A stretch of DNA of 31,536 nt from Myxococcales bacterium (GCA_037441385.1 JBBISH010000080.1:1-31536); one strand, 5' to 3'. Positions 10,410-25,433 are shown, counted from the stretch's first letter. Notes: generated by a model not told the origin, from the sequence alone. Made by a program: numbers and translations.

Positions 10410-11096
10410 CTATTTGCGCTCGGGCGGGTCGTAGAGGAGCATGCCGGCCAAGAGGCACGCGGTCTGGTCTGCGGTGGCCGGCGCTAGGCCCTTGCTCAGC
10501 CAGAAGCGCCCCGGGTGTTGGGTTTCTACGGCCCCGATCGGCCCGGCGCCGCGCAGCTCCCAGCCCAGGCCCATGGAGTACAGGCTGCCGTGTTCGTCGT
10601 GATCGACGGGGTTCGCCAGCAGGTTGCCGTCGCCGACGACGGCCGCGCCGCCCATGGGCGCGCCGTTTTCGCCCTTGAGCACAAAGCGGGTGCCGCTCGT
10701 GTCGGCGCCGCACGCGCAGGCCAGCGACGTCTGCTGGTTCGACAGGTGGCCGCCAAAGACCGCCACGTCCTTCTTTTCGGCCTCGACGCCGCAGTGGCCG
10801 GGCAGTTCGCCGGTGGGCGTGACGAGTACGAAGGCGTAGCCGGTCTTGATGGCGGTGGTGCTGTAGGCGCCGACGCCCCAGCCCGAGCTGCTGGTCCAGT
10901 CGCGGTCGACCTTGGTGACTTTGTAGGGGCCGAAGTTGAAGCTTTCGTCGACGAGCGCGCCCTTCCAGCTGGAGCGATTTTGGACTTCGTAGACGTTGGC
11001 GCCGCTGGCCAGGTCGGATGGCACGGCCATGCGGATGGGAGCGCAGGCGCAGGCGGCGGTGCCGAGCGCGAGGACTGCAAAGCGAGACAGGGACAT
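10410..11096 (-). CDS. Hypothetical lipoprotein
   Basis: GAGG RBS, lipobox-like ACAC, 228-aa ORF with normal codon bias. Confidence 0.7.
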   Translation of the reverse strand: MSLSRFAVLALGTAACACAPIRMAVPSDLASGANVYEVQNRSSWKGALVDESFNFGPYKVTKVDRDWTSSSGWGVGAYSTTAIKTGYAFVLVTPTGELPGHCGVEAEKKDVAVFGGHLSNQQTSLACACGADTSGTRFVLKGENGAPMGGAAVVGDGNLLANPVDHDEHGSLYSMGLGWELRGAGPIGAVETQHPGRFWLSKGLAPATADQTACLLAGMLLYDPPERK

Positions 11097-11182
11097 GGGG
11101 ACCTCGCGGCCGCCGCGTGGTTTGGAGCCGGCTTGGCGGGGAGCCTACGCTGTGCATCGGAAGGGCGTCAACTCGACAAGAA

Positions 11183-11366
11183 GGGGGGCAATTTCTACTA
11201 CCTACAATTGTTGAGGATTGGGCGCCTCGCCGCTGCCGCGGCGACCCGGCCACGACTTTGGGCGAAGGGAGTTTTCGCCATGCCCCGCGGCTGCCTCCGC
11301 CCAAAGCGGCGTTGCACGCCGCCCTTCGGGTGCGTGTCCGTGGCGCAGCGCCGCCGCGGCCGGCGG
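11183..11366. repeat. ~200-bp structured intergenic repeat, copy 1 (most diverged)
   Basis: GGGGGGCAATTTCTACT...TGGGCGCCTCGCCGCTGCCGCGGCGACCCGGCCACGACTTTGGGCGAAG...CGCCCAAAGCGGCG..., shared with the copies at 13711, 15152 and 18988. Confidence 0.9.
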
Positions 11367-11512
11367 CTGCATCGGCGCCCTGGGTTGGCCCTCGCCGCCC
11401 TTTCCGGCCTGCCCGCGCCCGCGTAGAGCGGGATGGCGTTCGCGCTGCCGCTCCGGCCATCTAGCGGCGGCTCGCCCCGCAAGCCTGCGACCCCAACCCT
11501 ACATGGAGGAAC

Positions 11513-12016
11513 ATGGCGACCGCCTACCTTGTCGAAGGCCCCGTGGGGGCTGGCAAAACTACCTTCGCCGCCCAACTTTGCCTGCGGCACCATGCGCCGC
11601 GGCTAGTGCTGGACGACTGGATGGCGCGGCTGTTCCGCCCGGATCGCCCCGCCACGGACGTCGTGCCGTGGTATCTGGAGCGCAAGCGCCGCTGCCTCGA
11701 CCAGATCTTTCAGGTAGCGAGCGACTTGCTCGAAGCCGGCAGTAGCGTGGTCCTAGAGCTGGGGCTGATTGGCGCGGGCGAACGCCTGGACTTCTATGGC
11801 CTGGCCGATGCGGCCGGCTGGGAGCTGCGCGTCTACGTGCTCGATGCCCCGTTGGAAGTGCGGCGCCGGCGGGTGCAAGCGCGCAACCGCGAGCAGGGCC
11901 CCACGTTTTCGATGGTGGTGCCGGACGAGGCCTTCGAACTGGCCAGTCGCCTGTGGCAGCCGCCCAGCGACGCCGAAGTGACCGAGCGGCGCATCGAAAT
12001 GGTGACCACGGGCTGA
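11513..12016 (+). CDS. Small P-loop kinase/ATPase (AAA_33-like)
   Basis: GGAGG RBS, Walker A GPVGAGKT, lid-like RRRRVQARN segment. Confidence 0.8.
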   Translation: MATAYLVEGPVGAGKTTFAAQLCLRHHAPRLVLDDWMARLFRPDRPATDVVPWYLERKRRCLDQIFQVASDLLEAGSSVVLELGLIGAGERLDFYGLADAAGWELRVYVLDAPLEVRRRRVQARNREQGPTFSMVVPDEAFELASRLWQPPSDAEVTERRIEMVTTG

Positions 12017-12030
12017 TCCTCGCGATGCAT

Positions 12031-12075
12031 GTTTGGGGGGGGCAATTTCTACTCTTTGAAATTGTTCGCATTTGC
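12031..12075. repeat. Partial (head-only) copy of the ~200-bp repeat
   Basis: GGGGGGCAATTTCTACTCTTTGAAATTGTTCGCATTTG, about 15 bp after the kinase stop. Confidence 0.7.
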
Positions 12076-12205
12076 TAGCGCTGCCGACCGTCCCGGGCCT
12101 GCCGCCAGCGCGAACTTGCTGTGCGTGCCGCTCTCAACACCACCTCGACCTGCTGCTGGCCGAGCCGCCATCGTCCGCATGGCAAGTTGCCTGGCAGGTT
12201 TGGCA

Positions 12206-12250
12206 CGTTGGGGGGGCGATTTCTACTATGCAAGATCGCTAAGGTTTGCC
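12206..12250. repeat. Second partial (head-only) copy of the ~200-bp repeat
   Basis: CGTTGGGGGGGCGATTTCTACTATGCAAGATCGCTAAGGTTTG. Confidence 0.6.
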
Positions 12251-12334
12251 ACGGCGGGCCTGGGAATTCCGCGACCTTCACAGGACCGCTTCGAGCGGGC
12301 CTCCCCTGCCAGGTTCACCCAAGTCCGCCCGCGC

Positions 12335-13570
12335 TTATCCGTTCGCGGCGGCGGCCAGTGCCTGATCGACAGCAGCCCTCTGGCGCCGCCACGCCACGAT
12401 GCGCTCCGGTGTGACGCGGGCTTGGAGCTGGCGATCCCGCAGCGGATGCCCCGCCACCGCACGGGCATAGCTCCCGAGCGCGACCTCCACGGAGCCCGCT
12501 GAATGCATCACGGAAACCAGCTCGCCCGATTGCCGATCGAGATCGAGAATTTCGCAAGGAATGGCCACAGCGACGCTCTGCCCCTTTGACCGAGAAAGCG
12601 AAATTCGCCCGTCGGCCTGGTCCTGCCGTGTTTGGAACCAGGGCGGCGGGTAGGGCCAGTCCGCCGGTTTGAAATTGGGCTGACTTCCAACCAGGCGCCA
12701 GCGCCCGTCCGCCACCGCGCTCAGCGACGTCGCCAGCAGAGCGCAGGCTTGTTCTGGAGCCAGGTCCTGTAGGTCCTCGATCCTTGGACATCCTTCGAAT
12801 ATCAACGGAAAGCCGTAGAGCAGGGCATCCCCAAACAGCACCAATCCGGGCTCGCGCGCGACCACCAGGGCGACGCCGATGCCGCCACCCAGCAACGGCA
12901 TGGCCAACCAGTGGCCTGCGCGCACCGACCGATCCGTAGTCCTGCCAGCTGGAATGCTGGGTTGCGCCCTCTGGGCCGCGCGTTGCCGAGCCGCAGCCGC
13001 CCACGCCGTCCAGGTGGCGAGCCGATCCGGGTCGATGGGGGTCACCTGGATGGTCAGGTCCCAAAACCCCGGCCTTCGACCCCGCGCATGGTTCCGCAGG
13101 GCCGACTCCAACCGGCTGGCGCCACTGACGAAGGAGAAGCGGGGAAAGTGGGCCGCAGTCTCGCGATCCGTCGGGTGGTTGTCCGCGACCGTCGCCGTGG
13201 CGGTGTCGTCGGTGGTCTCGATGGAGTACAGGTCGTGCGGCTCAGCCGGCCGATCGAAGTCGCCCGCCCCGGTTGGCAGGACCGGCCAGTCCGCCGGGTC
13301 AAAGTCGGCCACCGCGCCGCGTCGCTGCCACCGCCCGTTCGCAAAGGGCCGTGGCGGCAGCAAGCCAATCCAGGCGTCGGTCCAGCGGGCGAGCGGGGGC
13401 ATCTGGGCCGCAAGCTGCGGATCGACAAGGGGTTGCATGTGCAAGTACGCAAGAACCAGCGGGACTTTGCTGTTGGCGGGCGCCACCCGCGCCACCACCA
13501 GGGCAAAGTGCCCCACGTCCTGGATAGGAATGGTCCAGATGTCACCGGGTTGCACAGTGTTGTTCGCCAT
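12335..13570 (-). CDS. Tandem-duplicated Imm26-like immunity-domain protein
   Basis: Two similar halves begin VQPGDIWTIPI...ALVVAR and VRAGHWLAMPL...ALVVAR. Each later has GRW...G...FxPADWP. Confidence 0.55.
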   Translation of the reverse strand: MANNTVQPGDIWTIPIQDVGHFALVVARVAPANSKVPLVLAYLHMQPLVDPQLAAQMPPLARWTDAWIGLLPPRPFANGRWQRRGAVADFDPADWPVLPTGAGDFDRPAEPHDLYSIETTDDTATATVADNHPTDRETAAHFPRFSFVSGASRLESALRNHARGRRPGFWDLTIQVTPIDPDRLATWTAWAAAARQRAAQRAQPSIPAGRTTDRSVRAGHWLAMPLLGGGIGVALVVAREPGLVLFGDALLYGFPLIFEGCPRIEDLQDLAPEQACALLATSLSAVADGRWRLVGSQPNFKPADWPYPPPWFQTRQDQADGRISLSRSKGQSVAVAIPCEILDLDRQSGELVSVMHSAGSVEVALGSYARAVAGHPLRDRQLQARVTPERIVAWRRQRAAVDQALAAAANG

Positions 13571-13710
13571 CGAGTATCCCCTGCGTGGATCCGCCGCTCA
13601 CCAGTGTGGGCAGGGCCTTGCGGGCACAGCTGACCTGGAGCTTGGCGAAATTCGATCCTGTGGACAAGTCGTCACTCGGTCCAGCGAGCCGCTGCCAGCG
13701 CCCTGTGTAT

Positions 13711-13922
13711 GTTGGGGGGCAATTTCTACTGCGCGAGATCATTCGGATCTGGGCGCCTCGCCGCTGCCGCGGCGACCCGGCCACGACTTTGGGCGAAGAA
13801 GGCTTCCGGCCGGATTCGCGGGCTCCTGCGCCCAAAGCGGCGCGCGGCGCCGCCCTGCGGGTTCGTGTCCGTGGCGCGGCACCGCCGTGGCCGGCGGTGG
13901 GGGCCCAGCGGGAGACGGAGCC
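13711..13922. repeat. ~200-bp structured intergenic repeat, copy 2
   Basis: Near-identical to copies 3 and 4, ending GGGAGACGGAGCC. Confidence 0.95.
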
Positions 13923-13954
13923 GAAACCGGAGTCGGAACCGCAGCCGGAGGGTC

Positions 13955-14008
13955 ACCCGGCGGCTAAAGCCGCAGGCTAACTCTACAAAGCCCGGCCTCC
14001 GCCGGGCC
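13955..14008. repeat. Bipartite REP-like double hairpin
   Basis: CCCGGCGGCTAAAGCCGCAGGCT, spacer, GCCCGGCCTCCGCCGGGC. Same layout as the ends flanking tnpA at 26601 and 27099. Confidence 0.55.
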
Positions 14009-14064
14009 AGACCCCTTGTTGTACGGGGCAGTTGCCGTGTCCAGCACTGGCTGGGCGAGGCGCA

Positions 14065-14104
14065 ATTGGAACTTTTAGTTCCAATACGCGGAAAATAGAT
14101 TTCG
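14065..14104. promoter_or_regulatory. Palindrome plus GAAAATAGATTTCG motif, module 2
   Basis: ATTGGAACT-TTT-AGTTCCAAT followed by ACGCGGAAAATAGATTTCG. Confidence 0.7.
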
Positions 14105-14120
14105 CCCGCCCTGCCAACCG

Positions 14121-14352
14121 CTAATCCATCGCCGCGTTGCGTCCCTGCTGCTCGGCCTGCTCGACCTCCACCGCCGTGCGAAACGCGTCCAGCCATGCCA
14201 CCTGCCCCTCGGCCTCTACCTGCTGCAGCAGCCGCACCACCGCGCGCACGGCCTCGGTGTAGGGCTCGCGCGGCTTGCGCGGCGCCTTGTCGGTCGGCTG
14301 GCCGGCTTGCAACTGCTTGGCTTCGGCGACCACCTTGGTCACTGGGCGATTC
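14121..14352 (-). pseudogene. 5'-truncated copy of the repeated HTH/DUF3102-like gene
   Basis: Only RPVTKVVAEAK...GRNAAMD matches the full copies. Similarity stops near 14352, upstream of the MNT gene. Confidence 0.85.
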
Positions 14353-14464
14353 TGGGCTCGCTCGATCGGCCTCGACGCCGGCACGCGCTTGCCTGGGCCT
14401 GCTGCCGTGCGTATGCTGCACATGGTTCGCTGCGCCGGGTCGGCGGAACACGAGTTGATTCAAG

Positions 14465-14788
14465 ATGTCCGAGCCCTTTGCCCGCCTGCCCCCCGTTGCC
14501 TCGCGTGCCGAGGTGCTGGCGCGTCTGGCTGCCAATCAGCCGGAGTTGGCGGCCTTGGGGGTGCGGTCGCTCGAGTTGTTTGGCTCGTTTGCCCGCGACC
14601 AGGCGGGGCCCGCCAGCGACGTGGATTTCGTGGTCGAGTTCGCCGAGCCGTTGCAGGTCGAGCACTACTTTGCCTTGCGCTTTTTGCTTGAAGACCTGCT
14701 GGGCCGCCGCATCGACCTGGCGCGCAAGCGGGCGCTCAAGCCGACCTACCGCGCGTTTGTCGAGCCGGAGTTGATTCGTGTCGCGTAG
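14465..14788 (+). CDS. MNT minimal nucleotidyltransferase antitoxin (MntA-like)
   Basis: [22 protein letters not shown] is the GSx10DxD motif. Overlaps the HEPN gene. Confidence 0.9.
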
Positions 14789-15125
14789 TTGGCGCACTCG
14801 CTTGGTCGACAACGCCGAAGCATGTGAGCAAACGGCGGCGTTTGTGGCTGGCATGGACTTGGCGGGCTTCCTGGCCGACGCGCGGACCCGGGCGGCGGTC
14901 GAGCGGATGCTCGGGGTGATCGGCGAGGCGGCCAAGCACGTTCCAGCCGAGGTGCGCGAGCGGTACCCGGGCGTGCCTTGGCGCGAGGCGGCTGGAATGC
15001 GCGATGTTTTGGCGCACGACTACTTCGACGTCGACCCCGAGATGGTGTGGCTGGTCGCGACCCAGCGCGTGCCGGCGTTGCTGGCTGCCGTGCAGGCGGC
15101 GTTGGCAGCCGAAGGTGGCGAGTAG
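14778..15125 (+). CDS. HepT-like HEPN (DUF86) RNase toxin
   Basis: AVER...IGEAAK...PW...MRDVLAHDY contains the Rx4HxY motif. Confidence 0.9.
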
Positions 15126-15151
15126 CCATTGGGCAGTCGTTGCGCAGGTAC

Positions 15152-15362
15152 GTTGGGGGGCATTTTCTACTGCCCAAGATTATTCGCATTTGGGCGCCTC
15201 GCCGCTGCCGCGGCGACCCGGCCACGACTTTGGGCGAAGTAGGATTCCGGCCGGAATCGCGGGCTCCTGCGCCCAAAGCGGCGCGCGGCGCCGCCCTGCG
15301 GGTTCGTGTCCGTGGCGCGGCACCGCCGTGGCCGGCGGTGGGGCAGAACGGGAGACGGAGCC
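15152..15362. repeat. ~200-bp structured intergenic repeat, copy 3
   Basis: Begins ~27 bp after the HEPN stop. Near-identical to copies 2 and 4. Confidence 0.95.
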
Positions 15363-15428
15363 CCGGTCTCCCCGCCTGAGCAAGCTCGTCCTGCGCCCGA
15401 ATCGCCAGTCTTTAGGGGCGGTGGGTCA

Positions 15429-15573
15429 GCGGCCGGCGCGGAGGCACGGCCGCTACACCCTGGCGCACGTCCTTTGGGAGCAGCCTGTTCGTGGCGAAGG
15501 TCGAGCCGGGTTGCCAAGCGGTACCTTCCCCCTTTGGGCAGCAGGGGTAGCGGCTGGCCTCTGTGCCGGCCGC
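15429..15573. repeat. Pair of GTAG-type REP-like hairpins
   Basis: Minus strand GTAGCGGCCGTGCCTCCGCGCCGGCCG (15429-15456) and plus strand GTAGCGGCTGGCCTCTGTGCCGGCCG (15547-15573). Confidence 0.55.
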
Positions 15574-15645
15574 TCAACCGCCGGTTGTAGGTTGCTCCGT
15601 AGGTTGCTCTGCTACTGCCCGTGCTCGCCCTCTTGCGCCCGGCCA

Positions 15646-15686
15646 TATTGGACATTTTATGTCCAATACGCGGAAAATAGATTTCG
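15646..15686. promoter_or_regulatory. Palindrome plus GAAAATAGATTTCG motif, module 3
   Basis: TATTGGACAT-TTT-ATGTCCAATA is a perfect inverted repeat, followed by CGCGGAAAATAGATTTCG. Confidence 0.7.
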
Positions 15687-15703
15687 CCGGGCCACCTCAG
15701 TCA

Positions 15704-16258
15704 CTAATCCATCGCCGAGCTTCGCCCCTGCTGCTCCGCCTGCTCGACCTCCACCGCCGTACGAAACGCGTCCAGCCACGCCACCTGCCCCTTGGCCTCC
15801 ACCTGCTGCAGCAGCCGCACCACCGCCCGCACCGCCTCGGTGTAAGGTTCGCGTTGCTTGCGCGGCGGTTTGTCGGTCGGTTGGCCCGCTTGGAGGTACT
15901 TGGCCTCGGCGACCACCTTGGTCATGGGGCGGTCCAGCGCGGCCACCGGCATCTGCTGCGCCATGGCGGTGACCACTTGGGCCGTGGTGCAGTAGCGGCG
16001 CACCTGGCGGACGTCGATGCCCAGGCGCTCGGCGTGCGCGGCCTCCCAGGCGGTGACGCCGCTGCGGGCCTTGGGTTTGCTGGCCAGGAGCGTTTGGCCG
16101 AGTTTGATGCGGTAGGCGTTGGCGTGGATCTGCGCGGTTTGGGTGGTGGTCGAGAGGGAGGAGAGGTAGGATTCGGGGGTTTGGTCCGGGGCTGGGTCGG
16201 GGAGCTGGTTGAGGAGGTCGGCTATGGTTTGGGGTTCGGCGGGGCTGGGTTGCGACAT
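15704..16258 (-). CDS. Repeated HTH-containing protein (DUF3102-like)
   Basis: Likely start MSQPSP at 16258. IKLGQTLLASK...W...AERLGIDVRQVRRY resembles an HTH/DUF3102 pattern. Conserved paralog at 19280. Confidence 0.7.
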   Translation of the reverse strand: MSQPSPAEPQTIADLLNQLPDPAPDQTPESYLSSLSTTTQTAQIHANAYRIKLGQTLLASKPKARSGVTAWEAAHAERLGIDVRQVRRYCTTAQVVTAMAQQMPVAALDRPMTKVVAEAKYLQAGQPTDKPPRKQREPYTEAVRAVVRLLQQVEAKGQVAWLDAFRTAVEVEQAEQQGRSSAMD

Positions 16259-16743
16259 GGTGGGGCTTCCCGGCGTCCGATTTTGCCGGACGCGAAATAG
16301 ATTTCGACGAATTGCAGTGAGCATGTCAAGGCGTCCCGGCCCGGCGATGGAGGGTGCCGGGGATCTTCTGAACGGCTACCGCCGGGCCGTCGCGCTGCGG
16401 CCGCCGGTCGAGCGTAGGTCATGCGCGGTGACTGAGTTCTTGCTCCCGGCGGTGGCGACGCTCGGTCGCGCCGCCACCCTTGCGGGCTGGCATCGCTGAC
16501 GCGGGGTTGGGGTTTGCCGTGGTTGCGCGGGGCAGAAGGTGGGGGTATTGAGCGGCGGGAATTCATTTCCTGGAATGTGCCAGCCGAGCACAGCGTGCGT
16601 CCCTGTGAACTCCCATCCCCATGAATACTGAAGGTGAAGTTGCTGTGGCGTCGTCGCCCAGCCGTTGACTGAACTGCCCTGCAAGCGTAGCCTCGCAGGC
16701 GTCCGCTGCGGGCCGAATTGGCGACCGTGCGAACCGGAGCGCC

Positions 16744-18471
16744 ATGGTGACCGCCGTCATGCAGTTCAACACCGCGAACCAGACGCTGCGGCAGCTACTC
16801 GGCAACGGGCTCACCTACCGAGTACCGCCGTTCCAGCGCGACTATTCGTGGGACCAAGAGCAGTGGGAAGAACTGTGGCAGGATATCCTGCAAATCTCTG
16901 CTCCTACCGCCGCGGGTTCGGCGCCAAGTGCGCATTACTTGGGCTACGTGGTTCTGCAGAGTGTCGATAGCAAACAGTTCGACGTGATCGACGGGCAGCA
17001 GCGCCTGGCGACCCTCACCTTGGTGTTTCTGGCTGGCATCGAGCTGCTCGAACAGATGGTCCGGCAAGGGGTTGAGGCCGACGCCAACCGGCAGCGTGCT
17101 GTAGCCCTGCGCGCTACGTACGTCGGTTTCCTTGACCCTGTCACGCTTCTCAGCCGCAACAAGCTGACCCTCAACCGCAACGACAAGTATTTCTTCGAGA
17201 CCTATCTCGCGCCGCTGCAAGCTCCTCCGCGCGGCCGCAGCTTGGCCCCGTCGAACCGGCTGCTGCTGCAAGCCTACACTTGGCTCAGCAAGCAGCTGCA
17301 AAGCCACTTGGCCGGCGCAACCGGTGCTGCTGTGGCGCAGTTGCTGGCCGACATGGCCGACCGCCTGTTCTTCACGGTGATTTCGGTTGCCGACGAGCTC
17401 AACGCGTTTACGGTCTTTGAGACCCTGAACTCGCGCGGCGTCCGACTGTCGTCGACCGACCTGCTCAAGAACTACCTGTTCTCTCTGGTCTCGCGCCACG
17501 GCGCCGACGACCGCGAGCTCAACCAGCTCGAAATCCAGTGGCAGGCCATTCTCGACAAGCTCGGCGACGAGGACTTTCCCAACTATCTGCGCGTCTGGTG
17601 GAACGGCAGGCACCCCCTGGCGCGTCAGAGTGAGTTATTCAAAGAAGTTCGGAAACATACCACGGAGCGGGGCGAGGTCTTTGAGCTCCTGCGCGCTCTG
17701 GACCGCATGGCCGGCGTGTACGTCGCTCTGGGCAAGCCCGAATCCGAACTGTGGACCCACAGCCAGCGCGAGGCCCTTGAGCAGTTGAAAATGTTCGGGG
17801 TCAAGCAGCCCTTCGTGTTGCTGCTTGCTGCCTACGAGCAGCTTGGGCACGATGATTTTGCCCGATTGGCCGAGGCCTGCGCGGTGTTGAGCTTTCGCTA
17901 CAACGTAATCGGCGGCCTGCATACCGGCGAGCAAGAGAAGGTCTACCACGACCTAGCTGTGCGCATCAGTACCGCATCCGATTGGCGCCTGCACGACATC
18001 TTGGTCGACTTGGCCGCGCTCGCGCCTAAGGACGATCAATTTCGCTCCAACTTCGCACAAGTTCAGCTCCGCACGACCAGCCCACGCAACAAGCGAATTG
18101 CACGGTATATTTGCGCGCGCTTGCAGCATCACTTGGGTGGTGCACTGGTCGACCCCGACGACGGCACGTACACCCTCGAACATATTTTGCCTGAGAACCC
18201 GGATCCCGACGCCTGGCCCGACATCGACCCCGACGAAGCGCGTCAATGGTGCTACCGGCTTGGCAATTACACGCTGCTCGAGTCCTCCAAGAACCAATCG
18301 GCCGCCAATCGCAGCTGGGCCGAGAAGCGACCGATCTTTGGGCAAAGTGCCGTCGGTTTGACCCAGGGCGTGGCCGAGCGGTATGTCGAAGCATGGGGAC
18401 CGGTGCAGATCGACAAGCGCCAGAAGTACTTGGCGCAGCAGGCCGTTGCGGCTTGGCGACTTGTGGTTTAG
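16744..18471 (+). CDS. DUF262-DUF1524 protein (GmrSD/SspE-like NTPase-HNH nuclease)
   Basis: PPFQRDYSW, IDGQQRL and FETLNSRG are DUF262 motifs. LEHILPE...LGNYTLL...N is the HNH/DUF1524 motif. Confidence 0.9.
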   Translation: MVTAVMQFNTANQTLRQLLGNGLTYRVPPFQRDYSWDQEQWEELWQDILQISAPTAAGSAPSAHYLGYVVLQSVDSKQFDVIDGQQRLATLTLVFLAGIELLEQMVRQGVEADANRQRAVALRATYVGFLDPVTLLSRNKLTLNRNDKYFFETYLAPLQAPPRGRSLAPSNRLLLQAYTWLSKQLQSHLAGATGAAVAQLLADMADRLFFTVISVADELNAFTVFETLNSRGVRLSSTDLLKNYLFSLVSRHGADDRELNQLEIQWQAILDKLGDEDFPNYLRVWWNGRHPLARQSELFKEVRKHTTERGEVFELLRALDRMAGVYVALGKPESELWTHSQREALEQLKMFGVKQPFVLLLAAYEQLGHDDFARLAEACAVLSFRYNVIGGLHTGEQEKVYHDLAVRISTASDWRLHDILVDLAALAPKDDQFRSNFAQVQLRTTSPRNKRIARYICARLQHHLGGALVDPDDGTYTLEHILPENPDPDAWPDIDPDEARQWCYRLGNYTLLESSKNQSAANRSWAEKRPIFGQSAVGLTQGVAERYVEAWGPVQIDKRQKYLAQQAVAAWRLVV

Positions 18472-18964
18472 TGGTGGCCGTCCCGGTACGCCGCCTTTGC
18501 GGACCGCGGCTGGTCGGTGGCCGTTGGCGGCAGCTCGTTCCGCTTGGCTTGCTGCAGGGATCGGCGCTGACCTGGGCATCGCCCTGTGTGGCCAAGCCAG
18601 GCATGGCCGACATGATGGACACCGCGTTCCAGACAGCCGGTCGGGCCATGGGGCTCGCGTCCTTGGCGCCGCTCTTGTTGTGATATTTGTTGCCGTATCC
18701 ATCGAAGCTGGCCGTTTGTCGGCGGCGCGTTGGCTCAGTCGCGCATTGGCGGCGGCGGCGCTGGCGGTGGTCGCTGGCCTGGTCTGCTTGGCGGTTGCGC
18801 CAGGCTTGCTGTTGGCGGTGGCACCAATCTACCTGGTTGGCATGCCGGGCATGCCCACGCTGGCGATCGGCACGGTCAAGTGGCCCCGGGTCCGTCTCGC
18901 GCTTTGGGCGGCGTTGGTTGCCCTGTGGTCGCTCCTTGCGTTCTGGCTGCTGCGCATCGGGTAG
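18471..18964 (+). pseudogene. Small membrane protein, apparently frameshifted near 18660
   Basis: A GTG overlapping the DUF262 stop opens a signal-like frame that ends at 18683. The multi-TM part (LGAALVVIFVAV...LLAFWLLRIG) is in another frame ending at 18964. Confidence 0.35.
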
Positions 18965-18987
18965 CGGTTGTTCCGGGGGGCATCCGA

Positions 18988-19198
18988 TTGGGGGGCAATT
19001 TCTACTGCGCGAGATTATTCGGATCTGGGCGCCTCGCCGCTGCCGCGGCGACCCGGCCACGACTTTGGGCGAAGAAGGATTCCGGTTGGAATCGCGGGCT
19101 CCTGCGCCCAAAGCGGCGCGCGGCGCCGCCCTTCGGGTTCGTGTCCGTGGCGCGGCACCGCCGTGGCCGGCGGTGGGGCCAGAACGGGAGACGGAGCC
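18988..19198. repeat. ~200-bp structured intergenic repeat, copy 4
   Basis: Begins ~24 bp after the membrane-protein stop. Near-identical to copies 2 and 3. Confidence 0.95.
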
Positions 19199-19222
19199 AC
19201 GTCCGGGGCCCGCGACGGGCGC

Positions 19223-19263
19223 TATTGGAACTTTTGGTTCCAATACGCGGGAAATAGATTTCG
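19223..19263. promoter_or_regulatory. Palindrome plus GAAATAGATTTCG motif, module 4
   Basis: TATTGGAACT-TTT-GGTTCCAATA followed by CGCGGGAAATAGATTTCG. Confidence 0.7.
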
Positions 19264-19279
19264 CCCGGCCTACCAACCG

Positions 19280-19831
19280 CTAATCCATCGCCGCGTTTCG
19301 TCCCTGCTGCTCCGCCTGCTCGACCTCGACCGCCGTGCGAAACGCATCCAGCCACGCCACCTGCCCCTCGGGCTCGACCTGTTGGAGTAACCTGACCACC
19401 GCTCGCACCGCCTCGGTGTACGGCTCGCGTTGCTTGCGCGGCGGTTTGTCGGTCGGTTGGCCCGCCTGGAGGTGCTTGGCCTCGGCGACCACCTTGGTCA
19501 TGGGGCGGTCCAGCGCGGCCACCGGCATCTGTTGGGCCATGGCGGTGACCACTTGGGCCGTGGTGCAGTAGCGGCGCACCTGGCGGACGTCGATGCCCAG
19601 GCGCTCGGCGTGCGCGGCCTCCCAGGCGGTAACGCCGCTGCGGGCCTTGGGTTTGCTGGCCAGGAGCGTTTGGCCCAGCTTGATGCGGTAGGCGTTGGCG
19701 TGGATCTGCGCGGTTTGGGCGGTGGTCGAGAGGGAGGAGAGGTAGGATTCGGGGGGTTGGTCTGGGGCTGGGTCGGGGAGCTGGTTGAGGAGGTCGTGGA
19801 TGGTTTGGGCGGGGGTGGGTTCGGTGGACAT
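19280..19831 (-). CDS. Repeated HTH-containing protein (DUF3102-like), second full copy
   Basis: AAGGA RBS, start MSTEPT at 19831. Differs from the 15704 copy at 8 residues after the QTI motif. Confidence 0.75.
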   Translation of the reverse strand: MSTEPTPAQTIHDLLNQLPDPAPDQPPESYLSSLSTTAQTAQIHANAYRIKLGQTLLASKPKARSGVTAWEAAHAERLGIDVRQVRRYCTTAQVVTAMAQQMPVAALDRPMTKVVAEAKHLQAGQPTDKPPRKQREPYTEAVRAVVRLLQQVEPEGQVAWLDAFRTAVEVEQAEQQGRNAAMD

Positions 19832-19995
19832 GCTCGTGGTCCTTGGCGCCGCGGGGCGGCACACGTTGGAGCTATGTTCCCAACTTGGCTGTGGTTGTCA
19901 ATGACATATTACCTGAAATATGAAAGTAACTACTCCTTGCCGATGCCCTTCGGACGGGCTAACCTGCAACACCTCCGGAACATGGGGCCCCAGCG

Positions 19996-22900
19996 ATGCA
20001 GCCAATGAATCGTCGTGAATTCGAAGTCGCACTTTCCTTTCCAGGGGAAGAGCGCAGATTTGTGTCGAAACTTGCCAAGCATCTGGCTGACCAACTCGGA
20101 GAGCAGCGCGTGCTTTACGACAAGTTCCACATGGGCCGATTCGCTGCCCTGGACCTTGACGCCACCTTGCCCAACCTATACCGAACCGAATCGGAACTCG
20201 TAGTAATACTGCTCTGCCCCGACTACACGAAGAAACGCTGGTGCGGCCTTGAGTGGCGCGCCATCAAGCAGATCATTGCAACTCCTGAGCAAAAGCGGAT
20301 CTTGCTCTTGAAACGTGGCGATCCAGGCGATCTGAGTGCTCTCGGGATCTACCAAGGGGATGGTTGGCTGGAAACCAAGGGCAAGACAACGGGCGCGCTG
20401 GCAAAGATAATTCTTGATGAACTCGCGCGCCGCACCGGCTGGTCGCGTCCGCGCGTCGATGCCACGGTGTCCGTTCGGCGGCCGCCAGTGCTGGTTTTGC
20501 CGGAGCCTGAGGAATCCGACGTAAAAGATAGGGGTTGGCAGCTTGAGCCGGGCGTCCGCCGCAGTGTCGTAGGCCTGTCGGGCTTGGTTTCCTTTTCTGA
20601 CCTAGAAAGTGTGAGTTGCGTCGTTGCCATTGGCGAGCCAGGTATCGGAAAAAGCAAGGGCATGCAGCAAGAATTTCAGGCTGCACGCAGCCGACACGCG
20701 GGCGAACCATCCCACTTCGTCTTTGGTCGTGACCTGCGGGTGTATCGTGACGAGGGCAGGTTTGTGGCGGAGATCTTTGAGTCGGAGGGGTGGAGGAAAT
20801 GGTCGGCCGGCGAAGCGTGGCTCTCACTCTACCTCGACAGCCTGGACGAATGCCGTTTGGGCACGCCATTTGTCACAGACCTCCTCACGCACCAACTGGA
20901 ACTGAATCGGAGACACCTTGGAAAGCTCCGGCTCCGTGTCGCTTGTCGGACCGCCGACCTCCCGCGACAAATTGCAGATACCTGGTGCAGCGACCTGTTC
21001 AAGAGCGCCGGATTTCAAGTCGTTCGCGTTCCACCCCTGAGTGATAGCGAGGTAAGAACTATCTTGGTAGGGACTGGTGTCGACGCCGATGACCTGACCA
21101 GGCGCGTAACAGCCTTGGGGGCGGCAGACCTGCTGCGGCGGCCCATCACGTTGAACATGTTGGCGAAGGCCTTTCAGCAGGAGCATCCGCCGACGACGCT
21201 GACGGCGATCTACGAGCAAGGTTGCCTTGCACTCGCCGACGAGTGGAGCCAGGCGCGGAAGGATGAAGCCCGACTTATGTCTGGGTATCTTTCGGCTCAA
21301 GCGAAGTTGGCTATCGACACTCACGCCGCAGCTCTATTGATCCTTTCGAATCGTCGGTTTATGGGTGACCGCGAGTTCGAGCACGCGGAGGACAGCATTC
21401 CTGTAGCAGATGTAGCCACTGGCGCTCCGGTGCCCGCGGGTGCCACCGCTGACCGGCTGGGCGCAGTTCGCGACTGCCTCAAGATGGCCTTGTTTTCCAT
21501 GCCAGATCCAACGCAGGACCTGACGGAGTTCGCGCACCGTACCTACTGCGAGTTCCTGGCAAGCCGGCACCCGAATCGCGAGGCATTGATCTCCTTGCTC
21601 AAAACCGACGGCGAGTCCGGAGCGCGCATCGTGCCGCAACTTGCGGAAGTTGCGGCTTGGCTTGCTTGCAACGACGAGGAGTTTCGCCGCTTCGTGCTGT
21701 CGACGCAGCCTCAACTGTTGCTCAGCAGTGATGTCGTACGGTCCGATGAGCTAGGCAAGGCCGACGTTGCAGAAGCGCTAATAGGGGCCGTCGACGACAA
21801 GAAAGTCGCGCTGAACGAGGTACTGTACCTCGACGGATTTCCCGATTTGAAGTCCGACCGCGTTGCCGGGCTCGTTGGCTGCTGGATTCAAGACAACAAT
21901 CGCACACTTGAGGCCAGACTGCTCGCTTGCACTATTGCCCATGAGGCCAAGCTACTGGCCACGGCAGATGGTCTATATGCTGTCCTTGCCGACAAAGACC
22001 AGGATCTCCGGCTTCGAGTTGCCGCCGCGCGTACCATCGCCGGCTTGGGCGATGTGAGGGTCAACAGGCTGCGGCCGTTTGCCGAAGGACTTCCAGAAGA
22101 CGCCAACGACGAAATCAAGGGGTATGCGCTCAGCGCGCTCTTCCCTGCGGACATCCCTCCAACGGAACTGTTTGGATACATTTCCCCCCCAAAAAACGAC
22201 AGCTTTTACGGGGCGTACATGGCGTTCCTACATGGCCGCATGCAAAGCATCGACGTTGCGCTTGTGGTGCCGGGGCTGCGGTGGTGCCTTGGGGTGAACC
22301 GGAGCGCCCACGATTTCGGTGCAGTCATCGACCTTGCGGACGCGATAGTACGCAAAGCCTGGACGTCATTGGCAGATCCGGAAGTCGTTTCGTTGCTTGC
22401 CCAGCTTGCCGTAACCTGGGCCGGTAACTACGAATCCATACTCCCTGTGCCAGCAAAGTCTTGGGTTCACATCACGGATCAAGACGCGGTTGGCGGCGAG
22501 CTATCCGACCAGGCTCGTCGAGCGGTGATCTTCGACATGCTGGCCCACGGTCGAGCAACACGAGAACTATGGGACAATATTGTGTTTTCGCAGCATCCCC
22601 TGGCGTTGGGTAAAGACGCGGCGTGGCTGCTCGGACTCAAGAAGCAACTCCCAAGCGAGCAGCACCCAATCTGGGCCACGCTTACCGAGACTCTATTTCG
22701 CGTCCCCGGGCAGAACTACTTCGACCTAGTTGCAGAGCACCTTGCCGAAATTCTTGACGACCTTGATCTTAAGTGTGCGTTTTCAAAAGTTTTGGAGCCT
22801 GTCGCCCTCGCCGGTCCCGAAGCCGCATCGGCGCGGGCCATGTTGCAGAGTGATGCGGAGTGGCGCAGGCAGAGCGAAATACGAAAGCAAGAGGAAGATG

Positions 22901-24096
22901 AGCGGAAACTGAAAGAGGACCCTCGAACACGGGTGCTTCGCTTTCTGGAAGAGGCCGAAGGCGATCAGGTAAACGGCTGGTGGAAGGTCTGGCTGCAACT
23001 AACCCTGACCCCTGACAGCACGCGGTACGGTAACCCGCTCCACACGATCGTGACGGCGATGCCTGGGTGGCGCGACGCTGGCCCGGATACCAGAGAGCGA
23101 CTGGTCGCACTTGCGGCCAGGTACTTAGAGACAGGAAGTCCTAGCTTTTCGGAGTGGTTTGGAAAGTCAACGATCCACTACCCGGCTTCAGCCGGTTACG
23201 CCGCGTTTGGTCTGTTGTTCGAGGCTGCGTCACCGCAGTATCAGGCAATTCCTTCGGGGATCTGGCAGAAGTGGGCAAAAACGATCGTCGCGGTGCCGGT
23301 AGACGGCGAAGCTGAGAGGTCGCTCCATGCAATGCTTGTCGCCGACGCTTACGCTGAAGCGCCAGAGGAGGTCCTAGACACTCTACTTGAGCTCATACTC
23401 GAGGAAAACAGAACCCATGGCCACATCTTCAGCCACACCCTAGTCGCTGCTTGCTGGGATGAGCGAATTCGTCTGTTCTTCCAGAACCTTCTCACTACTC
23501 CCGAAATGAAGCCTACGCCCGTAGGCATAGTAGCTGAGGTTCTCCTTGGGCGTGACGACAATGCAAGCCTCGGCTGGGCGTGCGATACCGTATCCGATGA
23601 AAACGCGCCTAGTGACCTTCGAATTGCCGTTGCCCGTGCCCTCATGACCAAAGCCCACGGCGCGAGTTGGGGGCGCCTCGCGCCGATCCTATGGGCGGAC
23701 CATGACCTTGCGCGCTCAGTGTTTTCGGCAGTTGCCAACTCCGCAGGATTCCTCCGGGCCTGGCCAGAGCAAGTGGACGTGGCGCGCGACGGTGCAGTTT
23801 TGACGCTGATGATCCAGGTCTTTCCGTACGCGAACGATGTTCGCCCACTGGGAGCACATACCGTTGGCCTACAAGAGCAGGCCCAGGAGATTCGCGACTC
23901 CCTCTTGCGTCGAATCGCCGGTCTGGGCACACACGCGGCTGCAGATTTCATGTCGCAGCTTGCTGTCGAACATCCCGACCTCCACTGGCTCCGAGACAGG
24001 GCACTCGAAGCCAGAACACTGGCGGAACGGAAGTCGTGGAGTCCCAAATCGCCTAAGGAGGTAGCAGCAATTCTGGCAAACAGGAACCGTCAATGA
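19996..24096 (+). CDS. TIR - STAND (NACHT-like) NTPase - helical repeat protein, putative defence sensor/effector
   Basis: N-terminal TIR (FEVALSFPGE, WCGLEW with catalytic-type Glu), Walker A GEPGIGKS (20632-20655), Walker B LYLDSLDE, FAHRTYCEFLAS winged-helix motif and a long alpha-helical C-terminus. Visibly lower GC than the flanks. Confidence 0.85.
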   Translation: MQPMNRREFEVALSFPGEERRFVSKLAKHLADQLGEQRVLYDKFHMGRFAALDLDATLPNLYRTESELVVILLCPDYTKKRWCGLEWRAIKQIIATPEQKRILLLKRGDPGDLSALGIYQGDGWLETKGKTTGALAKIILDELARRTGWSRPRVDATVSVRRPPVLVLPEPEESDVKDRGWQLEPGVRRSVVGLSGLVSFSDLESVSCVVAIGEPGIGKSKGMQQEFQAARSRHAGEPSHFVFGRDLRVYRDEGRFVAEIFESEGWRKWSAGEAWLSLYLDSLDECRLGTPFVTDLLTHQLELNRRHLGKLRLRVACRTADLPRQIADTWCSDLFKSAGFQVVRVPPLSDSEVRTILVGTGVDADDLTRRVTALGAADLLRRPITLNMLAKAFQQEHPPTTLTAIYEQGCLALADEWSQARKDEARLMSGYLSAQAKLAIDTHAAALLILSNRRFMGDREFEHAEDSIPVADVATGAPVPAGATADRLGAVRDCLKMALFSMPDPTQDLTEFAHRTYCEFLASRHPNREALISLLKTDGESGARIVPQLAEVAAWLACNDEEFRRFVLSTQPQLLLSSDVVRSDELGKADVAEALIGAVDDKKVALNEVLYLDGFPDLKSDRVAGLVGCWIQDNNRTLEARLLACTIAHEAKLLATADGLYAVLADKDQDLRLRVAAARTIAGLGDVRVNRLRPFAEGLPEDANDEIKGYALSALFPADIPPTELFGYISPPKNDSFYGAYMAFLHGRMQSIDVALVVPGLRWCLGVNRSAHDFGAVIDLADAIVRKAWTSLADPEVVSLLAQLAVTWAGNYESILPVPAKSWVHITDQDAVGGELSDQARRAVIFDMLAHGRATRELWDNIVFSQHPLALGKDAAWLLGLKKQLPSEQHPIWATLTETLFRVPGQNYFDLVAEHLAEILDDLDLKCAFSKVLEPVALAGPEAASARAMLQSDAEWRRQSEIRKQEEDERKLKEDPRTRVLRFLEEAEGDQVNGWWKVWLQLTLTPDSTRYGNPLHTIVTAMPGWRDAGPDTRERLVALAARYLETGSPSFSEWFGKSTIHYPASAGYAAFGLLFEAASPQYQAIPSGIWQKWAKTIVAVPVDGEAERSLHAMLVADAYAEAPEEVLDTLLELILEENRTHGHIFSHTLVAACWDERIRLFFQNLLTTPEMKPTPVGIVAEVLLGRDDNASLGWACDTVSDENAPSDLRIAVARALMTKAHGASWGRLAPILWADHDLARSVFSAVANSAGFLRAWPEQVDVARDGAVLTLMIQVFPYANDVRPLGAHTVGLQEQAQEIRDSLLRRIAGLGTHAAADFMSQLAVEHPDLHWLRDRALEARTLAERKSWSPKSPKEVAAILANRNRQ

Positions 24097-25349
24097 GTGA
24101 CTTCCCGGCTTTGCCCGACATCAATAGCGATCAGGTCTCGGTCTCTGTACCAAATCCAAAACCATTGGACATCCTCGTGTTCGCCACGGAGTGGGCGCCG
24201 AGGCACGGCGGGCTGTCGACGCTAAATCAGAAGCTCTGCGTTGCACTAGCCGCCACTGGCCGCTGCCGGGTAGTCTGCTACATTCCCCCGGAGAGTGGGG
24301 AAACCCCGCGCGAAGATCGCGGTGTCCTACTGCTTCCCGCAAGGGCGGTGCCTGGCTTCCCGGCCAGCGACACGGCCCTTCTGCTGCGTCGTCCCGGGTT
24401 CGCTACCTTGCCGCGCTTCCAGGACTTTGCGCCAGATTTCGTTGTCGGTCACGATGACAAGACTGGGCCACATGCTTTGGCGGCGTGTCAGGACCACTTC
24501 CCAAGCGCCAAGCGGGTCCAGTTTGTGCATACGGAGGTCTATCCACTCCAAGGCGCAAAGACTCACTCGTCAGGCCAATTGACAAGTGCCAAGGCGTGTT
24601 TGGCCTCGGACCTCGTGAGAGAGGCTGACCTCGCCGTTGGCGTAGGTCCGCTGCTGGCCGAGGTGGCCTTTGGATACGGCGCCAAGCGCGAGCTTGCGTA
24701 TCAGCTGGATCCGGGGTTTGAGCTGTCGACTTGCGAGGTGCCACTTGCAGCGAACACCCAGCGGCGACTGAATGTTCTGGTCATTGGCCGGACGAAGGAC
24801 CCAGAGGTCAAGGGCCTTGAGCGCGCCTGCGTTGTACTTGCCGACGTGGCTGCCTACGTGCAGCACGAGGTCAATCTAATAATTCGTGGGTCAGATGATC
24901 AAAGTCAAAAGCACCTCAGCAAGCTCGCAAGAACATGGAATCGGAAGTGCCCGAACTTGAAGATTCAACCGCGTGAATTCACAGTTGAAAAGCGCGAGTT
25001 GGCGCAAGACTGGCGGGCTGCTCACCTTCTTATCGCGCCTTCTACCGTGGAAGGATTTGGGCTGGTTGCGCTTGAGGCTGCTGAGCGCGGAGTGCCCTTT
25101 CTAATTTCGAACCCATCCGGCTTCGCAAAGTGGCTCAACAGCTTGGATTCCTCTGCGTTCGACCGCCACGTGATCAATCCGCCGGGCGACGAGGAGGCTC
25201 TTCACGACGCATGGGTTGATCGAATCACCAGAATCTATCGCGACCCGGAAGGGGCCCGCCGCGAGTGCAGGAAAACCCAGGGCCTACTAGCGCCATACAC
25301 CTGGGAGCGGGCCGCGAACCAGTTGCTGGACAGGCTCGCCAGACTGTGA
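24093..25349 (+). CDS. GT4-type (GT-B) glycosyltransferase resembling the conflict-associated clade
   Basis: ATGA overlap with the TIR-STAND gene. ATEWAPRHGGLSTLN N-terminal motif, GR...KG, and Ex7E motif EGFGLVALE. Confidence 0.8.
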   Translation: MSDFPALPDINSDQVSVSVPNPKPLDILVFATEWAPRHGGLSTLNQKLCVALAATGRCRVVCYIPPESGETPREDRGVLLLPARAVPGFPASDTALLLRRPGFATLPRFQDFAPDFVVGHDDKTGPHALAACQDHFPSAKRVQFVHTEVYPLQGAKTHSSGQLTSAKACLASDLVREADLAVGVGPLLAEVAFGYGAKRELAYQLDPGFELSTCEVPLAANTQRRLNVLVIGRTKDPEVKGLERACVVLADVAAYVQHEVNLIIRGSDDQSQKHLSKLARTWNRKCPNLKIQPREFTVEKRELAQDWRAAHLLIAPSTVEGFGLVALEAAERGVPFLISNPSGFAKWLNSLDSSAFDRHVINPPGDEEALHDAWVDRITRIYRDPEGARRECRKTQGLLAPYTWERAANQLLDRLARL

Positions 25350-25433
25350 CCGTCGCCCACCGGCCGCAGACAAGCGCCAACTCGGGCCCCCCGGCCATTC
25401 CTGGCGCGAGTTCACTCGCCAACCTACCACCCC

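Follow-up and report, generated by a model that had tools for sequence, protein, structure and literature searches.

The window, a stretch of 31,536 nucleotides from a Myxococcales bacterium, holds a piece of myxobacterial chromosome in which toxin-antitoxin (TA) and anti-phage cassettes lie between constant folded repeats and one recurring small gene. Three young copies of a long repeat, which we call S, are each followed by a short palindromic element, P, and then by a minus-strand gene for a putative DNA-binding protein, with different TA or defence cargo between successive modules. The cargo units consist of one or two genes, several of them with foreign G+C (0.58-0.62 in the cargo against about 0.68-0.70 in the flanks). 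The array begins with the oldest S, which abuts a conserved minus-strand flank gene (10410-11096), and continues with a plus-strand AAA_33 or zeta-toxin-like P-loop kinase (11513-12016; AAA_33 1.4e-21, Zeta_toxin 0.003) and a minus-strand gene for a 411-residue protein with a weak Imm26 match (12335-13570; 6.8e-06, 26.8 bits against a cut-off of 23.3). The remaining cargo is all on the plus strand: an MntA-like nucleotidyltransferase (14465-14788) with a HepT RNase (14778-15125), recognised by domain match and as PDC-S09; a GmrSD type IV restriction enzyme (16744-18471; domain match) with a hydrophobic ORF (18383-18964), the pair being conserved in one of five relative loci (L001 to L005); and a low-G+C block (19996-25349, 0.58-0.61) made up of a TIR plus NACHT-like STAND NTPase gene (19996-24096) and a GT4-conflict glycosyltransferase gene (24093-25349). 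The true start of the hydrophobic ORF is probably near 18472.

A repeat search found S, of 211 nt, in four co-oriented copies at 11181, 13712, 15153 and 18988. In blastn comparisons the young copies share 93.5-95.3% identity with one another, and the oldest (over 11183-11366) shares 80.4-81.1% with them. The 17-mer at the head of S, GGGGGGCAATTTCTACT, has six matches with at most one mismatch, all on the plus strand (11183, 12037, 12211, 13714, 15155 and 18990), where 0.04 would be expected and none of 100 shuffles reaches six. All four long copies belong to one subtype, A, and score 189.6 bits with model R1 for the oldest (11181-11391, 73% identical to the reference copy), then 234.4 (13712-13922), 233.7 (15153-15363) and 247.1 bits (18988-19198). 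The sequence-only reading had listed these copies and had described an older repeat and two repeat heads flanking the kinase and the Imm26-like gene; the older S is there, while the "heads" are plus-strand S copies whose core has been deleted, at 12033-12133 (head 12037-12074; R1 20.7 bits, E 0.0036, 127 model positions skipped) and 12207-12324 (head 12211-12248; R1 14.2 bits, E 0.099). It had overlooked a complete copy of a second subtype, B, on the plus strand at 16329-16510 (core 16390-16504), between the promoter of a putative DNA-binding gene and GmrSD. S is an element of about 170-210 nt in two subtypes; all copies are on one strand, and the cargo-sense strand folds into a four-way junction. 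An unrelated long hairpin or REP-like insert occupies one S-P spacer (15417-15583, plus strand) and has relatives at 349-494 of L001.

The fold of the S core shows covariation. In an alignment of 11 copies, 94.4% of cells are paired, compared with 85.8% in shuffles, and 10 pairs carry double changes, compared with 3.9, values which none of 500 shuffles reaches, the structure tested being derived from the same alignment and the copies representing effectively three lineages only. Slid controls were 32-49% paired; the number of further pair types, 16 against 14.5, was not significant, since 108 of the 500 shuffles attained it. In the P2 stem, CTTTGGGCG/CGCCCAAAG of type A is matched at the identical position by CCGCCGG/CCGGCGG of type B, and on this comparison the stem conserves structure over sequence. 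By folding energy S does not surpass its shuffles (z -0.31 for the plus strand, -1.18 for the minus strand), and Rfam covariance models returned two matches to S in E-value mode (E 3.9 and 4.9) and none at the gathering threshold; the whole window has no match at the gathering threshold of Rfam 15. The G-U pairs in S indicate the plus strand, and a covarying fold containing them fits a plus-strand RNA. S might be the gene of a small RNA, terminating at the P hairpin and convergent with the recurring gene, the whole being a portable regulator of the neighbouring defence or TA genes that was duplicated within an ordinary defence island. We regard this as an unlikely, if credible, account. It agrees with the divergence of each of the three window copies of the recurring gene from its cargo, but in the window an antisense gene and 0.5-1.4 kb lie between S and the cargo that would be regulated, and a scan for promoters and terminators gave counts no different from chance (2 against 0.8 expected, 4 against 8.2 expected).

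P is an element of about 50 bp that consists of a perfect hairpin, with arms of 9-13 bp and a centre of 5-7 nt, and a conserved tail on its 3' side only. The pattern TATTGG-N11-CCAATA matches the window three times (14064, 15646 and 19223), with 0.00 expected and 0 of 100 in the shuffle controls, and the corresponding elements lie on the plus strand at 14052-14111 (hairpin 14064-14086), 15634-15693 (hairpin 15646-15668) and 19211-19270 (hairpin 19223-19245). The tail of the first holds ATAGATTTCG, a motif with four occurrences against 0.31 expected, three of them beside P and the fourth in the promoter of the second copy of the recurring gene (16297-16306). All 15 P or P-like copies compared have sharp edges within unrelated flanks, one orientation and one strand. 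The motif common to the P flank and a promoter would suit a regulatory module, as would the P copies of L003 to L005, where the hairpin is followed by GGTTTTGAATTT and looks like a plus-strand terminator; the window-type P, on the other hand, has no U-tract.

The recurring gene always ends beside P. Its minus-strand copies are a truncated one at 14121-14423, of which only the C-terminal ~75 residues are homologous (homology 14059-14348), one at 15704-16258 encoding an all-helical, putative DNA-binding protein of 184 residues, and one at 19280-19831 encoding a putative DNA-binding protein of 183 residues. The family is tiny, with nine clusters among 5.77e9 including the window's own. Pfam gave no family for the window protein at E-values up to 10, and no family is common to more than one of 10 members. 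What had been called an HTH gene encodes a protein that matches no recognised HTH family, and it lacks the wHTH plus WYL domain combination of BrxR-type regulators. DUF3102 (PF11300), a lead from the ESM Atlas, was rejected, with hmmscan matching none of 10 members and none of 37 distant relatives; among Atlas neighbours only 16-26% of members carry it. For this protein a homodimer is predicted (score 0.79, best control 0.00, runs agreeing on at least 97% of contacts, pLDDT at least 83); among proteins of solved structure, 20 of 30 pairs and 1 of 23 single chains attain the mark for this score. A predicted dimer would be in keeping with a regulator, whereas the absence of WYL or any other known regulator domain from the protein speaks against one.

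A pattern search of genome contigs with the recurring protein gave 111 matches, of which five were confirmed, on five contigs of three Myxococcota metagenome-assembled genomes (MAGs). These loci were fetched by that protein alone, so the sample consists of loci that carry its gene. In all five an S core lies within 1 kb of the gene and P is present, and the cargo comprises HipBA, GmrSD, DUF4160/DUF2442, RhuM, VapBC-like PIN/RHH, DUF433 and a pair of ATPase and TPR genes. One flank is syntenic, L001 8932-10946 matching window 11051-9024 at 81% (pfkB and its neighbour), and the array adjoining it differs. The block of GmrSD and membrane gene is kept at L001 2203-4545; the two sequences part at window 18964 and L001 2203, after which the window has an S head and L001 has HipBA. 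Ahead of a cassette of P and a Zn-ribbon gene, L003 has S spacer (4307) and L004 has the end of a TPR gene (4170), and homology stops at the left edge of P, the rearrangement breaking exactly there. P alone bounds many cassettes in the relatives, and S lies upstream of the recurring gene in L003 and L004. The Zn-ribbon gene can replace the recurring gene beside P; in L004 it abuts the recurring gene with no P between them. Cassettes of L003 flanked by P alone, with neither S nor the recurring gene, argue against the regulatory account.

The array that the sequence-only reading described is confirmed. Its unit of repeat, palindrome and gene, three times in one orientation, was recovered by repeat search, pattern search and location of the gene copies, and domain annotation of the window ORFs gave different plus-strand cargo after each. 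It had put the cargo stops about 15-27 bp before the next repeat, and the distances measured are 20 nt (12016 to 12037), 27 nt (15125 to 15153) and 23 nt (18964 to 18988). The module is constant in that its elements recur and are co-oriented, but in the relatives, where the reading had suggested looking for it and for its neighbours, the same elements stand beside other cargo and do not form a fixed trio. Divergence between copies had been taken to argue against duplication in assembly, and the wider comparison agrees. All the sequence, from the window and the relatives alike, comes from metagenome assembly, six short contigs in total, and the contig ends L004 1-190 and L005 9360-9549 share 96.8% identity, which suggests assembly breakage at repeats. 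An artefact or chance repetition is nevertheless very improbable: divergence between the copies is 5-27% and their flanks are unique, three independent MAGs share this architecture, and shuffle controls gave 0 of 100.

We favour, at a probability of roughly 0.45, the reading that the locus is a lineage-specific island of TA and anti-phage cassettes, anchored in the chromosome of a narrow Myxococcota clade, whose cassettes come, go and change order at the S and P junctions. This reading builds on the array itself, the recurrence of its elements with other cargo, the synteny of one flank, the breakpoints at element edges and the covariation of S. Also in its favour are the closer likeness of copies within a genome (87-96% identity) than between genomes (70-83%), the G+C of the cargo, the homodimer prediction, the motif common to P and a promoter, and the lack of S and P in the non-array flanks examined. 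Cassettes would most likely be gained, lost and reordered at S and P, which would act as recombination substrates, either through homologous recombination between repeats or by catalysis in trans. The dimeric recurring protein probably binds the palindrome of P and its tail as an autoregulator or insulator, and its own gene is the commonest cassette. Counting against this reading are the TIR-GT4 cassette with no S or P after it, the L004 junction that lacks P and the unremarkable folding energy of S. Many junctions are, besides, imprecise, as seen in the truncated gene at 14121-14423, a ~60-nt remnant in L002, a fragment from inside GmrSD in L001 and the core-deleted S copies, which implies that much of the change in the array is plain deletion.

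The likeness to an integron lies in the outcome alone, and the machinery differs. Integron arrays and CALINs are likewise tandem series of short, co-oriented cassettes, many of them with TA or defence genes, with a structured repeat a few bases past the cassette stop whose structure is kept more than its sequence, and with content that varies between relatives. An attC site has R''/L''-L'/R' boxes (RYYYAAC...GTTRRRY) and a length of 57-141 nt. Our reading of 15 aligned P copies and of the S copies found no R''/R' boxes in P or S, AAC...GTT occurring only in the P variant of the window and L001 and being absent from the other P variants. S has a branched fold of ~200 nt whereas attC is a bulged hairpin, the cassettes here have their own promoters and can point either way, one protein-coding gene keeps returning between them, and no IntI was found among the scanned ORFs. 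The repeats had already been judged unlike attC arrays, and they are neither attC nor tRNA. The earlier idea of an integron-like or tandem-accretion capture platform stands as to the cassette-like array, the co-oriented repeats and the cargo that varies in relatives; the capture mechanism it implied is not supported.

SCC composite islands and tycheposons grow by tandem accretion at one att site, and the units of S, P, recurring gene and cargo could similarly be non-autonomous integrative elements that a site-specific recombinase encoded elsewhere had stacked at one and the same att site. We think this improbable. Cargo-only units with no recombinase of their own, in one orientation and beside a conserved chromosomal gene, are shared with those islands, and the short head-only or core-deleted S copies between cassettes and the foreign G+C of the cargo would fit. 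Against it, no rlmH-type or tRNA target and no Ccr gene was found here, ARAGORN finding no tRNA or tmRNA gene in the window, and no integrase domain occurs among the scanned ORFs of the window (27 and 7 more) and the relative loci. The two ends carry no clean direct repeats; the right end has no terminal repeat, the TIR-GT4 cassette being followed by neither S nor P. The head-only S copies are deletion products and not clean att scars. From genome to genome the module has diverged to nearly the same degree as the flank (83% against 81% identity), which suggests vertical descent and not repeated arrival.

The statement that the window holds no recombinase has to be corrected, since a search for a linked recombinase or HUH protein, as proposed with it, found an intact IS200/IS605-family Y1 (HUH) transposase gene (26660-27091, minus strand) 1.3 kb to the right of the array. 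Hairpins of 20 nt, inverted relative to each other, flank the gene (26606-26625 and 27132-27151); it is supported by Pfam Y1_Tnp (3.9e-19), NCBIfam NF033573 (58.4 bits against a cut-off of 55) and PDB TnpA matches, and its translation shows HVH and Y..Q..HH motifs. Such an enzyme might cut and join hairpin-bounded cassettes as single strands in the manner of PATEs or REPs, with P and perhaps S as one-strand recognition signals, an idea whose chances we put slightly lower still. The strand constancy of all 15 P and all S copies and the behaviour of the P2 stem would suit it, and short, sharp-edged extragenic hairpins on one strand near a hairpin-flanked Y1 gene are what REP/REPIN-RAYT systems and IS200/IS605 PATEs present. 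The Y1 hairpins are, however, unrelated to P and S: CCCGGGAATKMATTCCYGGG matches the window at only three places (26606, 27132 and 31168), none within the array, and in none of the five relative loci, where no Y1 homologue was found either (best E 0.53). Asymmetric hairpin bulges usually mark the active strand, whereas P is a perfect palindrome. The cassettes here are, moreover, whole genes, and S and P lie within arrays only, with none in ~33.5 kb of non-array flank (window 1-11180 and 25350-31536, L001 6415-15203, L002 3403-10803). Nothing in these comparisons ties Y1 to S or P.

It is also conceivable, though doubtful, that this is an undescribed cassette platform, in which the P hairpin and the S junction form strand-specific bounds and an enzyme other than an integron integrase excises, inserts and reorders the cassettes; candidates would be a Y1 enzyme of the HUH type, working on single strands, and a recombinase recruited by the dimeric P-binding protein. 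If so, Myxococcota would possess an integrase-free bank of defence genes. A retron would have a reverse transcriptase gene beside its structured ncRNA, and no RT domain occurs among the ORFs scanned in the window and relative loci. The pdif (XerC/XerD) modules of Acinetobacter plasmids are small, often carry TA or resistance genes and are delimited by short sites built of two inverted arms, a likeness that extends to the modules here; the P copies differ in their single orientation, arm and centre lengths and one-sided tail, and the setting is chromosomal. Regulators of the BrxR/CapW WYL family are constant companions of varied defence systems, and here too one small putative DNA-binding gene is divergent from varied defence systems. 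The gene at this locus encodes no WYL domain or known HTH family, and the similarity reaches beyond it into the non-coding S and P, at 87-95% nucleotide identity.

The array in this window, which seems to be an entire contig of 31,536 bp (G+C 68%), is composed of a repeat, S, a hairpin element, P, a recurring minus-strand gene and differing toxin-antitoxin (TA) and defence genes as cargo. A repeat search of the window gave four co-oriented copies of the 211-nt unit S at 11181, 13712, 15153 and 18988; the three young copies share 93.5-95.3% identity with one another, and the old copy is 80-81% identical to these three. A pattern scan of the window for the 17-nt head of S gave six plus-strand occurrences, with 0.04 expected; those at 12037 and 12211 belong to S copies with a deleted core (R1 20.7 and 14.2 bits). 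The repeat copies listed by the sequence-only reading stand, but a complete copy of a second subtype, type B, had been overlooked at 16329-16510, between the promoter of the second gene copy and GmrSD. P, of about 60 nt, comes after three of the S copies and consists of a hairpin, TATTGG-N11-CCAATA, with three matches in the window against 0.00 expected, and a tail holding ATAGATTTCG, a motif with four matches against 0.31 expected, found beside 3/3 copies of P and once in the promoter of the second gene copy. P is followed by the 3' end of the recurring gene, which is present on the minus strand at 15704-16258 (184 aa) and 19280-19831 (183 aa) and as a truncated copy at 14121-14423; in the latter a 100-aa ORF remains, in which a new N-terminus precedes the retained basic linker and C-terminal helices, and could be expressed as a fragment. 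The S-P spacer of the second module also holds a long hairpin with 27-nt arms (15417-15583), to which two copies in the opposite orientation after HipA in the related locus L001 (349-494) are related; these probably constitute a separate REP-like repeat family. A further candidate relation, that the S head is a degenerate P, was rejected, as the best of 11 head-P local alignments was reached by 24 of its 500 shuffles and the others by 65-392.

The cargo named by the sequence-only reading is borne out by domain and defence-system annotation: an AAA_33 kinase, a weakly Imm26-like gene, MNT/HepT, GmrSD with a hydrophobic ORF, and TIR with a NACHT-like NTPase and a GT4-conflict glycosyltransferase. 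The stop codon of the cargo lies 20-27 nt upstream of the next S. The same reading had taken the module to be a constant trio, which does not hold in the relatives. A profile of the recurring protein, scanned against 185,579 species genomes, gave 111 pattern matches, of which five were confirmed; these lie on five contigs, from three MAGs of Myxococcota. In all five of these loci (L001-L005), fetched by the protein alone, an S core lies less than 1 kb from the gene and P is present; that the array is an artefact is exceedingly improbable. In the window's orientation, L001 reads GmrSD internal fragment, S(B), DUF2442/DUF4160 (-), P, gene, GmrSD with membrane ORF, HipB-HipA and the 3' end of rpoC, and L002 reads partial S(B), RhuM, S(B), P, a gene remnant of about 60 nt, DUF4160 with DUF2442, S(B), P and gene. 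L003 begins with an S fragment with spacer and P, followed by a PIN/RHH pair, P, DUF433 (-), a degenerate P and the gene, and continues with S(A) with spacer and P, a Zn-ribbon gene (-), P, an ATPase and TPR pair, and P. L004 carries P, the Zn-ribbon gene, the gene, S(A), an ATPase fragment with a RhuM pseudogene, and P, and L005 carries S(A) with spacer and P, a gene copy with an internal deletion, and DUF2442. The window's trio is therefore just one of several arrangements. In the L003-L005 lineage, P is 50 bp long, 88-100% identical between copies and sharp-edged, and forms the sole boundary of most cassettes. The Zn-ribbon gene (L003 3554-4246, plus strand in the locus; L004 about 3520-4110) replaces the DNA-binding gene beside P; it is 93.8% conserved between two MAGs and its product of about 195-230 aa has a weak topoisomerase-type zinc ribbon (E 0.024). 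The contig ends L004 1-190 and L005 9360-9549, from one MAG, are 96.8% identical over 190 nt, and represent either adjacent parts of a single array or a pair of paralogous cassettes; a repeat is apparently where the assembly broke.

Comparison of these loci shows where the cargo changes. To the left of the window's array lie pfkB and a neighbouring gene, which recur in L001 at 81% identity (L001 8932-10946, window 11051-9024), and beside this common flank L001 has a different array. GmrSD and its membrane ORF are common to both at 81%, and this homology ends exactly at the stop codon of the membrane ORF (window 18964, L001 2203), beyond which lies an S head in the window and HipBA in L001. In L003 and L004 the cassette of P and the Zn-ribbon gene is 93.8% identical, preceded by S spacer in the one and the end of a TPR gene in the other, and the break is the left edge of P (L003 4307, L004 4170). 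Copies of the repeats are more alike within a genome (87-96%) than between genomes (70-83%), module (83%) and flank (81%) have diverged about equally between the window and L001, and the G+C content is 0.58-0.62 in the GmrSD and TIR-GT4 cargo and 0.67-0.70 in flanks and modules, all of which is consistent with in-place homogenisation of resident repeats amid turnover of foreign cargo. We give a probability of roughly 45% to the reading that S and P are repeats resident at the junctions, where cassettes would be gained, lost and reordered, with a predicted dimeric protein that would bind P as an autoregulator or insulator and whose gene would itself be the commonest cassette. Precise cassette exchange is argued against by the truncated genes, the GmrSD fragment cut at both ends, the core-deleted S copies, the absence of both S and P beyond the window's last cassette and a Zn-ribbon/gene junction without P in L004. 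The idea that the L001 GmrSD fragment is closer to the window was dropped, since its identity to the intact copy within L001 is likewise high, at 96.8%.

The recurring protein belongs to a family of nine clusters at 90% identity among 5.77e9 entries; one of the nine is that of the second copy in the window itself. Searches of Pfam, NCBIfam, PADLOC and PHROGs yielded no convincing family (best PHROG E 0.003 in one of ten members), a DUF3102 lead was not confirmed, and neither tblastn of the protein against plasmids and phages nor blastn of S and P against plasmids gave a match. The AlphaFold model is all-helical with a mean pLDDT of 83.8, and Foldseek against PDB and BFVD returned no match at E <=0.001, only weak ParB-, KorB- and DnaA-C-like rows. 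A profile search of 1.84e9 representatives found 47 proteins at E <=0.001; among the 37 distant relatives scanned for domains, ten close or short ones being left aside, 12 carry a Pfam domain C-terminal to the common region and the other 25 none. Ten of these 12 have a D12 N6-adenine methyltransferase (one of them also Dam), one has Dam only and one GP88, and it follows that the common region is a DNA-targeting module of a kind characteristic of phage-type methyltransferases. The predicted assembly is a homodimer with a score of 0.79 against 0.00 for the best control, a mark attained by 20 of 30 proteins whose solved structures are pairs and by one of 23 whose structures are single chains; contacts agree between runs to at least 97%, with pLDDT of at least 83. 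Such a predicted dimer would fit binding to the palindromic P and its tail, a step that we infer. A scan for sigma-70 promoters and terminators stayed at chance level. The P hairpins of L002-L005 are TGGCAC-N5-GTGC and TGGCAA-N5-GTGC, with GG-N10-GC spacing on both strands. Sigma-54 promoters have a GG-N10-GC consensus spacing; these variants fit it but those of the window and L001 (GTTC) do not, and P as a sigma-54 promoter was rejected as a general explanation.

S itself appears to be a structured element. Interpreted by eye, the core alignment of seven type-A and four type-B copies suggests a four-way junction closed by stem P1, with a long arm P2 (CTTTGGGCG/CGCCCAAAG in type A, CCGCCGG/CCGGCGG in type B), a short hairpin P3, a stem P4 of CCC-N3-GGG (CGC-TGC-GCG in L001) and a conserved single-stranded stretch before the 3' strand of P1. 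Pairing in a 21-pair consensus holds in 94.4% of cells against 85.8% in shuffles, and 10 pairs are changed on both sides against 3.9, neither value being reached by any of 500 shuffles; sliding of the partners left 32-49% paired. Further pair types numbered 16 against 14.5 and were reached by 108 of 500 shuffles, which is not significant; because of this, and because the consensus was derived from the same alignment of effectively three lineages, the covariation evidence is good but not conclusive. G-U pairs, present for example at two positions in 5/11 and 7/11 sequences, assign the fold to the cargo-sense strand. In this G+C-rich DNA the folding energy of S is not significant against shuffles on either strand, and Rfam, at the gathering threshold and in E-value mode, gave no family and nothing usable. 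S could act either as RNA or as folded single-stranded DNA. With a fold on the cargo-sense strand beside a gene for a putative DNA-binding dimer, a portable regulator unit of sRNA and repressor is possible, if unlikely; L003, where cassettes lacking both S and the DNA-binding gene are bounded by P, speaks against it.

Islands and integrons are known gathering places of defence and TA genes, and to our knowledge the exchange of content in integrase-less islands is mostly unexplained. The array had been called an integron-like or tandem-accretion platform, and in layout and content it does resemble an integron or CALIN, but it has neither IntI nor attC boxes (checked by eye) and so fails the defining tests. 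ARAGORN found no tRNA gene in the window as an anchor. Tandem integration through a distant site-specific recombinase would account for such a layout and is improbable. The array also differs from retrons in having no RT, and from BrxR/WYL-type regulators, as no WYL domain was found in its protein. The comparison also took in SCC islands, tycheposons and pdif modules. In the portions of the literature available to us, no description of such an array was found. What the array supplies is candidate junction signals, S and P, defined to the nucleotide, a new covarying structured element and an uncharacterised, predicted dimeric DNA-binding protein. If the junctions are active recombination sites, they would represent a second, independent solution to cassette banking and would serve for searching high-G+C bacteria for unknown defence genes; otherwise the array is still a lineage-specific defence hotspot that is well documented and contains a new non-coding motif.

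The window was said to lack a recombinase, and this has to be withdrawn: an intact IS200/IS605-family Y1 HUH transposase gene lies at 26660-27091 (-), to the right of the array (Pfam 3.9e-19; NCBIfam 58.4 bits, cut-off 55; TnpA matches in PDB). Inverted 20-nt hairpins (CCCGGGAATKMATTCCYGGG) on both sides of it (26606-27151) give a RAYT-like arrangement, and a 3' fragment of a second copy at the contig end (31090-31438) forms a 349-nt repeat of 94.6% identity with a third hairpin. Comparison with REP/RAYT (background in PMC3337134, PMC5581495 and PMC8266576) and IS200/IS605 systems thus finds a Y1 gene in the window, but the cognate hairpin differs from that of the array: it is unrelated to P and S, and a pattern search found it neither in the array nor in any of the five related loci. 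Mobilisation of single strands by this nearby enzyme is quite improbable.

Between the array and the transposase gene, directly right of the array, lies a gene for a 401-aa protein with an NTP_transf_8 nucleotidyltransferase domain (25434-26639, minus strand; 2.8e-32), into which the variable region may continue without S or P. The 3' end of this minus-strand gene contains two tandem 33-nt units (CCAAAACCTCCC..., 76% identity) at 25451-25516. Elsewhere in the window, two long NHL-repeat ORFs on the plus strand (3601-5151 and 4880-6688) overlap by about 270 nt in different frames and may be one frameshifted gene or two overlapping genes.
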